From assembly GCF_003790525.1 (NCBI RefSeq), contig NZ_CP033635.1: 64,000 nucleotides of DNA. One strand, 5' to 3'. Position 1 is the stretch's first letter; every line of letters starts with the position of its first letter. The position numbers were made by a program, and so were the translations under genes. Below, one piece after another: positions 1 to 8,402 of the stretch. Source of the stretch: Escherichia coli (GTDB lineage: Bacteria; Pseudomonadota; Gammaproteobacteria; Enterobacterales; Enterobacteriaceae). The notes under the pieces are model-generated. The model was not told where the DNA came from. It did not search any database and saw only the letters and a list, made by a program, of their open reading frames with translations.

Positions 1-86
1 CGATACGAATAGCCCTTATCAACAATCAGCTGTGCACATTCCAGCCTGAACTCAGGGGTGAAAGTACGTTTGGTTTTCTTGTTCAT
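1..86 (-). CDS. IS3-family transposase OrfA, N-terminal fragment (partial, truncated by window edge)
   Basis: Minus-strand ATG at 86 preceded by AGGTGA; translation [29 protein letters not shown] resembles N-termini of IS3/IS911-type OrfA helix-turn-helix proteins. Confidence 0.45.
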
Positions 87-160
87 TAAGTCACCTGTTT
101 TGTGTTGAGGTGAGAATATCACCTTTAATCAGGTGGCCAAATTTACTGTGCCACTACACA
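1..160 (-). mobile_element. Edge of an IS3-family insertion sequence (terminal inverted repeat plus start of orfA); element continues beyond the window
   Basis: Minus strand reads TGTGTAGTGGCACAGTAAATTTGGCCACC...AGGTGA..ATG, resembling IS3-family left ends that start with TG, followed by orfA start at 86. Exact terminus not determined. Confidence 0.4.
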
Positions 161-550
161 GAGCCAATATATTTATAGCTATGTGGGTGGCTCATCGCTG
201 ACGGCATGTATGCGTAACAGAGCATCTGTATCATCCGTTTGACGTTTTCGTCGGCGATCCTGCCAGCTATTCGGACATCTTGTGAAACCCAAAGGCAGCG
301 GCTGACGAAGCTTATCCGGTATCCTCTCGCAACAAAGGTACATGTACCATCTACTTTTTGGGCGGCCATTGTCGACAGATTCTTAAGTAGAACAGCTAAG
401 TTTAGATTTAGGAAAAAGTTGTTAAAATCAAGCAAATACTTATCATCATCACTTGATTTCGTAAACGCAAAACTACGATACTATTAACAAATTCTTCTAT
501 GCATTCTTACCGAATGTTGGCGGTAGCGTGCTTAATCACTCGGATTTAGT

Positions 551-3500
551 ATGAAAAAAAATTCTTTAAATGTGATTTTGGATACTGTTTTCTCGGCGAA
601 AAGCATCAATGGTGAGAAATCTCATTCTTTTATATCGTATAAATTAGTTAAAGCTGTAGAAAATTTAAGTGGATATGACTTGGATCTTTTCCTCAATCGT
701 GCGATAAACCATCCTAACTTCCCTAGCAATATGGATTTTTCCTTACGAACAGTTTTTACAATTGAACAATCTAACACTATTGAATTTAAAAATTTCATTT
801 CAGAATTGGTGTGGTACAAGCATATTTTCATACGATATAAAAAACACCTTAATGATATATTATCGGCAAAGGCAAGACTTGAGAAGTTAGTTCTTTTCGC
901 AACAGGTAGTGAATGTATAAAATATTTAGATGAAATAGAAAGCTCTTATGGAGTTAGTTTTTGGAGCATTGATGCTCGTCTCTTAATAAATAAAGTTTTG
1001 CTTAACGAAAGCAATGGGTTATATGTTAAATCAATTCTATCTAAAACCCACTATAAACTTACAGAGTTTATGTTACAGCAGCTATTATTTAAGCATCAAG
1101 TACATAACTTTGATGATTTTTCAAAGAACCTTATAAAAATACTAGATGATATGCGCACCACTCAAGATAATGGGTATGCTAGAAATTTAGCTGATGGTAT
1201 TTCATCCTTTTTAATACCTTTAGAGTTTGATAAAAATATAGATCTCAAAAATAGAACCTTAGCACCATTTACCAACCTTCCTTTAATAGATCAATTTATC
1301 ATATTCCAGAGAACTATAAGCGATTTACAACTTCATGGAAATGGTTTAAGAAATAGCGAGTTAAGCTTAATTGCAGAAATTAACAGCTTTATTAAAAATA
1401 ACTATCTCAACAATATTTTAGATGGAAGAGAGCGTAATATAGAGAATATTGATGAACACTATAAAAGTGTTATTCGACGTTATACTATAGGTGATTATAC
1501 TGGGTGTATTTCAGAAATAAATTCAGTTCGAACGCAGAAGACAATTTTGCCATTAATTGAAATATATGCAAAATCCCATGTGTATCTTGATAAGAAAATT
1601 TCAGACTCATGCATATTCAATAAATTAACAAACTGGCTTATAGCAATTATAAAATGCGACAGACGCGCTGGAAAATACATCGATGAATTTGAACTTTTAG
1701 CATCTAAGATATATTTCAATTCAAATTCATCCTCTCTATTCTTCACATTATATAATTTAATAAGTGATAACCATAATAAATTAAACATATCTCGTATAAA
1801 TCTAACCAAAAATGGTTCCTTTGTAACATCCCTTCATTTGAATATAACAATCAAGGAACTATGGACTGAACTTGGAATAAAAGAGAATGAGATACCAAAA
1901 TATCGATTATTTAAATTCAAAGACCTAGCAAATCTATCCTTTGATGAAATCAAAAAACACTACGAAGTATACAATGATAATGTAATAATTCGCTCTGAAT
2001 ATTTAAAAGATTATACTAACTTTTTATTAGAAAATGAAAAGTATGAATTATGCATCCAATTTATAGCTGAAAACTGCATCGGCAACCCCGCAAATTATTA
2101 CTACTTCCCAATCCGAAAAATAATTGATTTTGTAAAAGACAATATTTTTGACTATGCAAGCGTGGCCTTATCTATATTGATAGATATTTTTGTCAAAAGC
2201 ACATCAAACACTTCAAATGAGCTTCTTCTCGAAAGTTATGAGAGTTTAGTAGATATTTCAAATATTAATAGGCCATCTACCCATTATTGCTCTAAGCAAT
2301 TAACTCCATTAGAGCACTATTTCCTTAAGTTTATCTGTATACCTTCCGTGATGGATTCAGACCCTTCATTCACAGGCACGGACGACTTGAAGAAGGAAAG
2401 AATTGCTATTATAGATCTATTATTAAAAGAACACGATGATGCAGATTTATTGAAAGAGAAAGACGAAATTATAGATGAAATATCATTCGAAGAAATAAAA
2501 ACAAAATATGAGACAGGAAAAATATTTGTTGATATAGAAAATTTAAAACGGGCAAAGCTTGAAAGATACAGATATTATTTTGATGCACTTAAGGATTCGC
2601 TTATTCTCGGACTAGAACCACCTGAAGACTTTGCTTTAATTACAGACGATGGGAATATCACAGCCATTCCATCTGGCGATACAAACTCTATAATCCATGA
2701 ACTTCTAAAAGAACTAATCTCCGATTTTGTTAAAAATGAAAATTACGGTCTTGATAAATATTTGAGTGCAGATATACGGCATGGTGTTTTTGAAAATCAA
2801 CTCAGATCAAGTGCTGAAAAATCGCAATTAATAACTGATATGGATGGTACTGGACAGTATTCGAAAAGCAATTTAATTATTGAGACATATCCATTAATTA
2901 ACCCTATTATAAATAACGAAATAGGGACAGCAATAGCTGATTTCTCTTATCACTTTGACATTGAATTGGCTAAAGCCAATTCCTGGTTCAATGTCAAGAC
3001 AATGCTCATAAGTGAATCACAGCAAGGTATGATTGATTTCCTCATTTCTGTTGATATGTTTAATTCATTTAAAGCAGCAGTTTCAAATCAAGCATCTTTT
3101 GAGAAGTTTTTTGACGCTTGTATTAACTTCATGTGGGAAAGAACGTTCAGATGTTTGAATGATATTAAAGAGCGATTGCATTACGAATTTAAGAGGAATA
3201 TTTTAGATTTAATTGCCACTCTTAGGCATCAAATTGATATCTATAGAAGACGTAGTTCCATGAGAGAAATCCAGGAGAAAATTGACCTCTTGGCCGAAAG
3301 CATTAATAAAGAAATTGCAACAGTCTGCGATTGGTTAAATGTACTTGAGTATAACGAGGAGAAAATATATAAAATATCATCCGTGATGCAGGCATGTAGG
3401 AAAACTTTTTTTAATATACACCATTGTTCTGATGATGCTATCGTTTTTGATTCAATGTATCATGATGATGAACCAAAATTATCTTATAAAGAAGCCAAGC

Positions 3501-6877: not shown

Positions 6878-6978
6878 AAGTATCTCTTTTTAGATAAAAT
6901 TGGATTTCGACAAGTAGACGTTGATAACAACAAGACTGGTTAGATAATTTAATCATTGATGCAACGTTTAGCGTTGAA

Positions 6979-8163
6979 TCAATTGACATCATTACCAATT
7001 CTTCCAATGCAATCAGCATACCACTGCATCATCTCCCTCCGCCCTTCCAGATACAAAGCATGGTTGTACGTCCCACGAATCGCATTCTTATCGACATGCG
7101 CAAGCTGGGTTTCAATCCATGCCGTATTGAACCCTTCCTCGTGCAAAATCGTACTCATCGTGTGACGGAAACCATGCCCCGTTACCTTCCCCGTATACCC
7201 AATCCGTTTGAATACCTGATTCATACTCGCTTCACTCATCGTCTTGCGGGGATCATTTCGCCCTGGGAATACCAGTGGATATTGCCCAGATATCACCTTG
7301 AGTTGTTGTACGATTTCCAGCGCTTGGGTAGATAGGGGGACAAGGTGAGGCCGTTTCATCTTCATACGCTCTGCAGGTATTTCCCACACTGCTTTTTCAA
7401 GATCAAACTCACTCCAGAAAGCACCTCGTAGCTCGCCAGTACGAACTCCTGTAAGGATCAGCAGACGAGCGGCAAGAACAACTAACGGGCTTCCTGTGTA
7501 GCCTGCGAGAGCTTTAAAGAAGTCTGGTAACTCCTCAACAGTAAGGAAGGGATAATGCTTCGATTCATGCCCTGACATTGCGCTGGTTAGATCCGCTGCA
7601 GGATTGTATTCCGCACGACCGGTAACGATGGCGTAACGAAAGACTTCACTGCAACGCTGGCGAACCTTCTTGGCCTTCTCTGTCGCGCCACGGCTTTCCA
7701 TTCGACGTAGCACATTCAGCAGAACCAAAGGCTTGATGTCATTCACCGGCAGTTGGCCAATATAAGGGAAAATATCTTTATTGAAGGCTTCGATAATGTC
7801 GGAGGCATAACCTTCTGACCACCGGCTCACCTTCGTTCCGTGCCATTCAAGTGCCACAGCCTGAAACGTATTATTGAGCTGCACATCGCGAACCAACTTT
7901 TCTTCTTTCTTGGCAAACGATGGGTCGATACCTTCGGCCAGCTTTTTCTTGGCTTCATCACGCAGTGCCCTCGCTTGTGCAAGGGACACTGCCGGATAGA
8001 CACCAAAAGCCATACGTTTCTCTTTTCCATTGAAGCGATATTTCATCCGCCAGTATCGAGAACCAGAAGGAACAACTTCAAGATACAAGCCTGCACCATC
8101 TGCTAGCTTGTAGGCTTTCTCTCTGGGTTTAGCAGCATCTACCTGTCGAGCATTAAGCTTCAT
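6979..8163 (-). CDS. Site-specific tyrosine integrase, P4-like family
   Basis: N-terminus MKLNARQVDAAKPREKAYKLADGAGLYLEVVPSGSRYWRMKYRFNGKEKRMAFGVYP is typical of P4-type integrases; C-terminus has GHGFRHT and LAHVDKN...RGTYNH catalytic-region motifs. Start placed at ATG 8163 (AGGGAG 9 nt upstream); lies 164 bp from the tRNA 3' end. Confidence 0.9.
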   Translation of the reverse strand: MKLNARQVDAAKPREKAYKLADGAGLYLEVVPSGSRYWRMKYRFNGKEKRMAFGVYPAVSLAQARALRDEAKKKLAEGIDPSFAKKEEKLVRDVQLNNTFQAVALEWHGTKVSRWSEGYASDIIEAFNKDIFPYIGQLPVNDIKPLVLLNVLRRMESRGATEKAKKVRQRCSEVFRYAIVTGRAEYNPAADLTSAMSGHESKHYPFLTVEELPDFFKALAGYTGSPLVVLAARLLILTGVRTGELRGAFWSEFDLEKAVWEIPAERMKMKRPHLVPLSTQALEIVQQLKVISGQYPLVFPGRNDPRKTMSEASMNQVFKRIGYTGKVTGHGFRHTMSTILHEEGFNTAWIETQLAHVDKNAIRGTYNHALYLEGRREMMQWYADCIGRIGNDVN

Positions 8164-8326
8164 TGGGGGCATCTCCCTGGACCGAACACAGAATGCCCCC
8201 ACTTATGCCCCCAACTGCGACTTGATTTCGGTTGAGTCCAGTTGATAACAGGAGATAAGATACGGGCCAGAAACCGCAGTATACGGGCTTTTAGTTGATT
8301 TCGGTAGACTTGGGAAGAGTTTGAAA

Positions 8327-8402
8327 TGGTGCCGATAATAGGAGTCGAACCTACGACCTTCGCATTACGAATGCGCTGCTCTACCAACTGAGCTATATCG
8401 GC
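8327..8402 (-). tRNA. thrW: tRNA-Thr (anticodon CGU)
   Basis: 76-nt minus-strand sequence GCCGATATAGCTCAGTTGGTAGAGCAGCGCATTCGTAATGCGAAGGTCGTAGGTTCGACTCCTATTATCGGCACCA folds as a cloverleaf with anticodon loop TTCGTAA and CCA end. Confidence 0.9.

Follow-up and report, generated by a model that had tools for sequence, protein, structure and literature searches.

Among the tRNA genes of Escherichia coli, thrW is one of the sites most used for integration (PMC7545054), and the islands described there, including PAI III536, the VAT-PAI of avian pathogenic E. coli (APEC) and GI-thrW of ST131, have this target in common and carry variable cargo together with insertion sequence (IS) elements (PMC7545054; PMC4659465). 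The subject of the present analysis is a further island at the same tRNA gene, located at the left end of a 64,000-nucleotide stretch of E. coli DNA (the window; contig NZ_CP033635.1 of assembly GCF_003790525.1) whose sequence is 100% the same as that of the phylogroup F strain SMS-3-5 (NC_010498.1, reverse strand). A first reading of the letters without database searches (the sequence-only reading) had named thrW, correctly, as an integration hotspot, and had proposed that the DNA to its left is an AT-rich integrative island. Compared with the other thrW islands, that of SMS-3-5 is much smaller (12 kb), carries defence cargo instead of adhesins, toxins or siderophores, and has a backbone that was probably truncated by an IS; in common with CP4-type and other thrW islands, it retains a backbone composed of CbtA/YeeU, a JAB/RadC-like protein, an antirestriction protein, DUF905 and DUF987. 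CP4-6 of strain K-12 is presumably a comparable thrW island of the CP4 type. Literature searches returned no description of this particular thrW island.

Two further systems provide points of comparison. The first is the satellite phage P4, which uses leuX and resembles the thrW element in integrase architecture, in the presence of two direct and one inverted arm repeats at the start of int and two more across the core, and, approximately, in the spacing between arm repeats and core; the core sequence and the target differ. The second is Detocs, in which the TPR-containing histidine kinase DtcA is proposed to sense infection and to phosphorylate the receiver-effector protein DtcC, with a stand-alone receiver, DtcB, proposed to buffer stray phosphate (10.1101/2023.01.24.525353). 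Protection from phages by way of the kinase histidine, the receiver aspartate and the effector has been described for the systems of Vibrio alginolyticus and Enterobacter cloacae (10.1101/2023.01.24.525353). The Detocs-hydrolase system of E. cloacae JD6301 has the same A-B-C gene order as the operon considered here, proteins of nearly the same length (approximately 1,100, 150 and 386 amino acids versus 1,091, 149 and 387) and the same domain make-up of DtcA, DtcB and DtcC, including the HSFG and GGHS motifs and a C-terminal transmembrane segment; it differs in sequence (32% identity), host and genetic context, and the thrW copy is listed as a candidate system, PDC-M60, in PADLOC v2. The Detocs system of V. 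alginolyticus UCD-32C follows the same three-component logic, and its DtcB and DtcC match the same PDC-M60B and PDC-M60C models. Its effector is a PNP-like ATP nucleosidase, whereas that encoded by the thrW island is predicted to be a membrane hydrolase, and arrest by depletion of ATP is therefore not expected here.

Taken together, the data presented below make it highly probable that the window contains the integrase-proximal two thirds of a 12-kb P4-type island at thrW, with a Detocs-hydrolase operon and a HEPN-like gene as cargo and a backbone probably shortened by an IS. Islands of the P4 type linked to tRNA genes, the use of thrW as a hotspot and Detocs itself are already established; every component of the island is of a known kind and the current understanding of such elements is unchanged. 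What is new is a diverged copy of Detocs, the equation of PDC-M60 with Detocs, and an uncharacterised family of 321-amino acid proteins.

Island ends, attachment sites and the empty site

The sequence-only reading had placed the far end of the island and its direct repeat outside the window, and a repeat of the thrW 3' end was accordingly sought to the left, in a locus (L001) made by extending the window 20 kb leftwards, such that L001 coordinates equal window coordinates plus 20,000. A repeat of 20 nucleotides with a single mismatch was found 12,051 bp from the tRNA copy, at L001 16273-16292 (window -3727 to -3708). The distal copy reads AAATGGTGCCGATAAGAGGA and the tRNA copy AAATGGTGCCGATAATAGGA, and the 20-nucleotide pattern occurs exactly twice in 48.5 kb, compared with 0.00 occurrences expected from 100 shuffles.

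The site of recombination can be read from a naturally empty site. In a three-way alignment of the empty site of strain 702/18 with the two SMS-3-5 junctions, the left part of the empty site agrees with the distal junction and its right part with the tRNA junction; attB and the two island junctions have the same 15 nucleotides at 8324-8338. The crossover therefore lies inside AAATGGTGCCGATAA, which corresponds to the last 12 nucleotides of thrW plus 3 nucleotides downstream. The lone G/T difference between the two copies falls just outside this 15-nucleotide core and is of island origin. From these boundaries, the attP junction of a circular form is predicted to read GAGTTTG-AAATGGTGCCGATAA-GAGGAACAT. 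Insertion would thus have been a site-specific event in which a P4-type attP recombined with the thrW 3' end inside the 15-bp identical core, regenerating the tRNA gene and leaving the 20-nucleotide repeat, with its one mismatch, at the far end.

As the decisive test of these boundaries, a synthetic empty site, composed of the distal flank through the repeat, the tRNA body and proA, was searched against 5,426 complete E. coli genomes. In 81 of these genomes it was recovered as a single contiguous match (100% coverage, 99.0-99.9% identity). The element thus combines insertion at the 3' end of a tRNA gene, a flanking direct repeat and a precise empty site elsewhere, as is characteristic of P4-type elements.

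Base composition sets the cargo apart from its surroundings. Sliding-window G+C content is 0.28-0.33 between approximately 500 and 7000 and 0.48-0.58 to the right; by segment, the cargo block (159-6978) has a value of 0.315, int 0.489 and the next 20 kb on the proA side 0.514. The compositional break therefore coincides with the int stop codon and not with the tRNA gene, the integrase module being host-like in composition. The earlier proposal that everything to the left of the tRNA gene is AT-rich consequently holds for the cargo block and fails for the integrase and the spacer between int and thrW.

An alternative view of the AT-rich block, namely that it is ancestral chromosome lost by most E. 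coli, has nothing in its favor beyond the presence of the block in one lineage. The block is flanked by att repeats and P4-type arm sites, 81 genomes carry the junction exactly at the repeat, the block differs sharply in G+C content from flanks of 0.51, and its carriers number only 16 of 5,426 genomes. The empty site and the three-way alignment refute this explanation, to which we assign almost no weight. Likewise, the two observations named in the sequence-only reading as speaking against an island, no repeat of the tRNA 3' end together with a block conserved in all relatives, are clearly not what the genomes display. Instead, integration at thrW of horizontally acquired DNA, with two cargo modules in one slot, would account for an AT-rich block found in SMS-3-5 and 15 further genomes of one lineage.

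Traces of a second integrase are present outside the island. Between the distal att repeat and yagU, at L001 15950-16230 (window approximately -4050 to -3770), lies a C-terminal fragment of another integrase, ending ...EMVRRHAHLSVRHFTAHASKIKGTRGER*. This fragment points at the att site, is also present in the empty-site genomes, where RefSeq annotates it as 'integrase', and is probably a relic of an earlier element at thrW.

A P4-type integration module

The sequence-only reading located a P4-like integrase 164 bp from the tRNA 3' end on the same strand, in agreement with the RefSeq start at 8163 and the tRNA 3' end at 8327. An alternative GTG start at 8202 would give a protein of 407 amino acids. 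The label "P4-like" can be taken strictly: the integrase is a three-domain recombinase homologous to P4 Int (Arm-DNA-bind_3, E = 7e-29; Phage_int_M, 2e-33; Phage_integrase, 1e-22), to which it aligns over its whole length with 45% identity across 404 aligned columns (E = 5e-118), and its VRTGELR, HGFRH and GTY motifs align to the P4 catalytic motifs with the residues conserved. Its match to the NCBIfam model PRK09692 scores 300 bits, under the cutoff of 434 bits, and its top phage relative is the integrase of a Salmonella P22-like phage (47%). Homology to other thrW islands begins at approximately 7013, inside int.

Consistent with the classification of the integrase are the sites predicted to serve it. 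With the 12-nucleotide attP arm repeats annotated in the P4 record as template, the motif TGCCCCC/GGGGGCA was found in five copies within a 12.9-kb region, all of them at the island ends (L001 16355 and 16367; 28165, 28194 and 28206). The two distal copies lie 63-81 nucleotides inside the distal core, within a 22-nucleotide stretch identical to P4 4151-4174. Arm repeats are thus present on both sides of the core and at both ends of the island, in an arrangement like that of P4 attP. The three copies beside int agree with the P4 annotation in how many there are, how they are oriented and how far apart they lie, and they are also conserved in a different thrW element, that of strain XDL, described below. 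These repeats are predicted binding sites for Int.

The likeness to P4 raises the question of whether the element is a degraded P4-like satellite or prophage remnant. Integrase and attP architecture are indeed P4-like, and in related strains thrW also serves as the target of a P22-like prophage and of a satellite-like element. Against this stands the outcome of a tblastn search with all P4 proteins, in which Int alone matched and no homologue of alpha, cI, epsilon, vis, sid, delta or psu was found in the island; structural genes are likewise absent, and the backbone of CbtA/YeeU, JAB, antirestriction and DUF905 genes is typical of CP4-type islands. A remnant of this kind is accordingly considered very improbable. 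As genes for P4 replication, capsid-size determination and excision are missing, the element is an island and not a P4 satellite.

Occupancy of thrW and the question of mobility

The comparison of thrW occupancy across E. coli that the sequence-only reading had proposed reveals a variable site. The cargo block is confined to 16 genomes, all at approximately 100% identity; members of the integrase family were matched in 214 genomes, 207 of them with at least 90% nucleotide identity and at thrW; and the distal junction is common to 193 genomes. The region upstream of dtcA behaves as the cargo does, in that blastn run in a mode suited to distant matches recovered it at 100% identity in the cargo carriers only.

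Variation is also evident among close relatives of SMS-3-5. A near-identical core flank of 11.6 kb is shared by 24 genomes, which are therefore regarded as one lineage. Sixteen of them carry the island and two (702/18 and EC332) have an empty site; of the remaining six, CUVET17-1418 and XDL were examined, and both hold a different element of approximately 19 kb whose integrase is 74% identical to that of the island. This element (160-19000 in the CUVET17-1418 locus, L021; 1270-20150 in the XDL locus, L022) encodes an HTH regulator, AntA/B, ash, a TOPRIM/DUF927 primase and P22-like DNA-ejection proteins, and looks like a phage satellite. A search allowing up to 3 mismatches found no distal att repeat for the XDL element.

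In 2 of the 16 carriers the match to the window ends 46 nucleotides into the tRNA gene, and a P22-like prophage lies between the island and thrW, a case of tandem occupancy of one att site. The strains concerned are XH992 (L002 24372-40372) and 23CRST013, and the prophage genes include those for portal, capsid and ejection proteins and a tailspike.

How such a distribution arose bears on whether the island is still mobile. It may be a fixed and immobile relic, derived from one integration in the ancestor of the clone and inherited only vertically after excision functions were lost and an IS-mediated deletion had removed much of the backbone; this explanation competes with current mobility and not with an origin by integration. 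Several observations fit it: the tblastn search with P4 proteins found no excisionase or AlpA/Vis homologue in the island; the 16 carriers are essentially 100% identical and belong to one lineage; the IS has a truncated open reading frame next to it and no target duplication around it; and the island ends are shared by relatives of 33 kb. Additionally, the empty sites could be ancestral and not products of excision, which, like the missing excisionase, weighs against a mobile island. Arguing in the other direction, the integrase reading frame is intact with the P4 catalytic-motif residues conserved, both att cores and all five arm-type repeats are intact, and within a single clonal lineage thrW is found empty, occupied by the Detocs island or occupied by the satellite-like element, which points to recent turnover. 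On balance an immobile relic is a serious possibility, if one with somewhat less than an even chance of being correct. The locus offers a clean and fully bounded example: both att sites and the crossover core are defined, and so are the arm sites and the naturally empty sites.

A Detocs-hydrolase operon as cargo

The three overlapping genes (551-5432, + strand) and the separate 321-amino acid gene (5912-6877, - strand) noted by the sequence-only reading are present as described. Its interpretation of the former as a three-gene phosphorelay operon is retained as to the genes and can be refined to a predicted anti-phage system of the Detocs-hydrolase type. Firstly, the genes lie on one strand in the order dtcA-dtcB-dtcC with 4-nucleotide overlaps, as expected of a Detocs operon. 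Secondly, the products have the expected domain composition: a predicted helical or TPR-like sensor joined to a histidine-kinase core in DtcA, a stand-alone receiver with an acceptor aspartate in DtcB, and a receiver, hydrolase and transmembrane segment in DtcC. In the latter, D56 is the predicted acceptor of the receiver, S229 (in HSFG), D283 and H321 are the predicted hydrolase residues, and a hydrophobic tail, IPIWLFFSFLLIALVL, occupies approximately residues 371-387; Pfam recognizes Response_reg (E = 6e-05) and, weakly, alpha/beta-hydrolase families.

Comparison with characterized proteins, whose sequences were taken from Table S1 of 10.1101/2023.01.24.525353 and which in the case of DtcA covered the first ~400 amino acids, supports the assignment. 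Aligned over its full length, DtcC shares 32% identity with its validated E. cloacae counterpart (E = 9e-56), with HSFG, GGHS and the C-terminal tail conserved, and DtcB is 32% identical to DtcB of E. cloacae JD6301 (E = 1e-19). The family hidden Markov model of DtcA aligns with E. cloacae DtcA throughout the 399 N-terminal residues compared (128.5 bits, E = 1.3e-41). Furthermore, the validated DtcB and DtcC proteins of both V. alginolyticus and E. cloacae match PDC-M60B and PDC-M60C, the full-length V. alginolyticus DtcC with E = 1.4e-64. As validated Detocs proteins match the PDC-M60 models, the PADLOC v2.0.0 candidate PDC-M60 can be equated with Detocs.

For DtcA, an exhaustive phmmer search identified 1,498 relatives, mostly of about 1,100 amino acids, where a word-indexed search gave 2, and its precomputed Pfam family is PF27260 (Y4jQ). 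In an AF2 model (pLDDT 85.7), residues 1 to ~680 are predicted to be entirely helical and residues ~940-1090 to form an alpha/beta ATPase domain; among the top 50 Foldseek hits in the PDB, nearly all are DHp+CA histidine-kinase cores or close relatives of these (E = 1e-4 to 2e-3). N995 and G1054-G1057 are conserved. Within residues 690-940 a single histidine is conserved, H744 (window 2780-2782, in the motif SAEIRHG), which does not vary among 35 family members. It lies approximately 100 residues upstream of a long helical hairpin (850-928) that is itself followed by the ATPase domain in the model, which is an unusual position for a phospho-acceptor, and is probably the residue that fills this role.

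A number of points weigh against the Detocs assignment. Identity to the tested Detocs-hydrolase proteins is just 32%, so that a role at this locus is proposed by homology; the N-terminal 400 amino acids of V. alginolyticus DtcA display no significant similarity to the DtcA family of the window; searches with DtcA gave no match in Pfam-A, NCBIfam or PHROGS; its family profile gave sub-significant matches to histidine kinases (E = 0.07) and TPR proteins among PDB sequences; and, as the V. alginolyticus sequence compared ends at about residue 400, H744 is no more than a candidate equivalent of the published H645 of that protein.

The alternative to a defence system is an ordinary regulatory two-component phosphorelay serving a metabolic or envelope response. 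The receiver domains are like those of many housekeeping response regulators, and such a reading would also accommodate the reliance of the Detocs role on homology. Neither response regulator, however, has a DNA-binding output, the predicted output being a membrane-anchored alpha/beta hydrolase; each of the three proteins has a homologue in a Detocs-hydrolase system that protects E. coli from phages; the operon sits in the slot adjacent to the integrase; and no transmembrane sensor region is predicted for DtcA, whose N-terminus forms a soluble helical array in the model. The closest relative of the operon leads in the same direction. A 63%-identical operon (10001-14885 of L005, JGI metagenome contig Ga0308165_1001377), whose DtcC counterpart is likewise 63% identical, lies between a relaxase gene on one side and, on the other, an Mrr-like nuclease gene (PADLOC ZorD/PDC-S02-like) with a split integrase, an example of the whole operon being carried together by a different mobile element. 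A regulatory phosphorelay is consequently considered quite unlikely.

If the operon acts as Detocs, DtcA would sense infection and autophosphorylate, probably on H744. The phosphate would then pass from H744 to D56 of DtcC, the membrane-anchored alpha/beta hydrolase would become active and the cell would be stopped or killed, while D53 of DtcB would take up stray phosphate as a buffer. Promoter and terminator scans of the region gave results at background level. The operon adds a diverged E. coli member, predicted by homology, to the Detocs-hydrolase systems available for comparative work.

A HEPN-like gene adjacent to the integrase

The second cargo module encodes a 321-amino acid protein for which neither NCBIfam nor PADLOC gave a match; Pfam likewise gave none, for the protein itself or for any of 29 homologues, and PHROGS returned a marginal match to a family of unknown function (E = 0.0021). 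Its C-terminal domain has a four-helix fold of the HEPN type. R214, R215 and H273 are invariant in the family and do not have the Rx4-6H spacing. As both an Rx4-6H motif and a Pfam match are missing, the protein is described as HEPN-like in fold and not classed as a member of the DUF4145/HEPN family.

An accessory function in Detocs was considered for this gene and rejected: the operon of the metagenome contig is followed by an unrelated gene, and homologues elsewhere are solitary, being scattered as single genes across the Enterobacterales. The gene would therefore act independently of Detocs. A 76%-identical homologue is found on Salmonella Rep3 plasmid contigs (L019 and L020, 8001-8942), where its neighbors encode a RelA_SpoT-domain protein, ParDE, TacAT, an AAA_13 ATPase and a group II intron, a neighborhood rich in toxin-antitoxin and defence genes. 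Because of its place in an integrase-adjacent defence slot, its solitary scatter and the company it keeps on the Salmonella plasmids, the gene may, tentatively and at rather long odds, encode an undescribed single-protein abortive-infection system that couples a beta-rich sensor to a divergent DUF4145/HEPN-like RNase lacking Rx4-6H. The closest described system under this reading is RAZR (PD-T7-4), in which a zinc finger and a DUF4145 HEPN RNase are combined in a single-protein abortive-infection system (PMC13017515). RAZR would be analogous in logic and is unrelated in sequence: the 321-amino acid protein has a beta-rich N-terminus in place of a zinc finger or zinc ribbon, has no Rx4-6H motif and gives no match to PD-T7-4. 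The family is put forward as a candidate defence gene.

Backbone, IS element and a presumed deletion

To the left of the window, the island contains a DUF905 pseudogene and genes for an antirestriction protein, a JAB/RadC-like protein, DUF987 and a YeeU/CbtA toxin-antitoxin pair. By sequence comparison, this backbone family is represented in approximately 210 complete E. coli genomes that share the int end and the CbtA/YeeU-JAB-antirestriction end, and the cargo in the slot beside the integrase varies from member to member. In strain 300709, for example, the island is 33 kb long with ends 90-94% identical to those of SMS-3-5, holds Ag43, a GTPase, Hha and an acid-resistance module, and has a Type II methyltransferase gene adjoining the integrase.

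Between the Detocs cargo and the distal backbone lies an IS3-family element. The sequence-only reading had recognized an IS3-family end and the start of orfA in the first ~160 bp of the window, as borne out here, and had termed it a fragment, which does not apply: the IS is complete, spans 1,258 bp (L001 18901-20158) and is cut only by the window edge. RefSeq annotates an IS3-family transposase with programmed frameshift, and the terminal inverted repeats are 26 nucleotides long and 81% complementary. A match to the Rfam family isrC, an Hfq-binding sRNA, covers window positions 1-90 on the - strand (94 bits); it is cut by the window edge and overlies the orfA start inside the IS.

No target duplication of 3-4 bp is present around the IS, whose flanks read CAC and CAG, and immediately to its left is the C-terminal part, 40 codons long, of an open reading frame (L001 18776-18898, - strand; ending ...VKIVRGSKTLRLYKVQTGY*). 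This frame is open to within 2 nucleotides of the IS edge and has no start codon, and the gene was therefore truncated by the IS. The 3' end of Ag43, which occupies the equivalent place in strain 300709, was tried as the source of the fragment and gave no match. As the same ends enclose ~33 kb in relatives, the IS is taken to mark a deletion, and the island of SMS-3-5 is probably a shortened family member, reduced from ~33 kb to 12 kb, with the IS at the deletion joint, where it would now join the cargo to the distal backbone. That this step is deduced from the missing target duplication, the truncated frame at the IS edge and the size of relatives counts against the overall reading of the island.

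Features of the window

The features of the island that fall within the window, together with its tRNA target, are listed in Table 1.

Table 1. Coordinates of the island features and of thrW in the window.
Feature	Position	Strand	Evidence and remarks
Right-hand 158 bp of IS3-family IS	1-158	-	Inverted repeat 133-158; transposase orfA start 86
dtcA upstream region	159-550		G+C content 0.42; 16 genomes, all at 100% identity
dtcA, predicted 1,091-amino acid Detocs sensor kinase	551-3826	+	PADLOC PDC-M60A, E = 4.5e-55; helical 1-~680, C-terminal histidine-kinase core
dtcB, 149-amino acid stand-alone receiver	3823-4272	+	D53 in ILDMS; PDC-M60B, E = 2e-35; NCBIfam receiver matches; proposed phosphate buffer
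dtcC, 387 amino acids: receiver, alpha/beta hydrolase and hydrophobic tail	4269-5432	+	PDC-M60C, E = 1e-22 over the receiver part
Terminator-like hairpin between convergent genes	5452-5487		15-bp stem; 20 nucleotides past dtcC stop; consensus match only
321-amino acid orphan gene, separate cargo module	5912-6877	-	N-terminal beta-rich domain; C-terminal DUF4145/HEPN-like helical domain
P4-type tyrosine integrase, 394 amino acids	6979-8163	-	Pfam Arm-DNA-bind_3, Phage_int_M, Phage_integrase; intact open reading frame
Three arm-type repeats, TGGGGGCAT type	8165-8212		Direct 8194-8200 and 8206-8212; inverted 8165-8171, overlapping int start
Integrase-proximal att core, AAATGGTGCCGATAATAGGA (+ strand)	8324-8343		Direct repeat; three-way alignment; 2 matches versus 0 expected
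thrW, tRNA-Thr(CGU), anticodon CGT	8327-8402	-	ARAGORN; Rfam RF00005, 71.8 bits; RefSeq; integration target

Elsewhere in the window, several loci outside the island were recorded. At approximately 16300-18050, prfH and an adjacent rtcB-family gene are intact, and RefSeq annotates them as truncated in strains C3728 and M217. At 18700-19100, yafO is frameshifted according to RefSeq annotation. Finally, a Flag-2 lateral-flagellar cluster (lafU, motA, fliA-like, fliK, fliS, fliD, lafA) follows dinB, beginning at approximately 20570.

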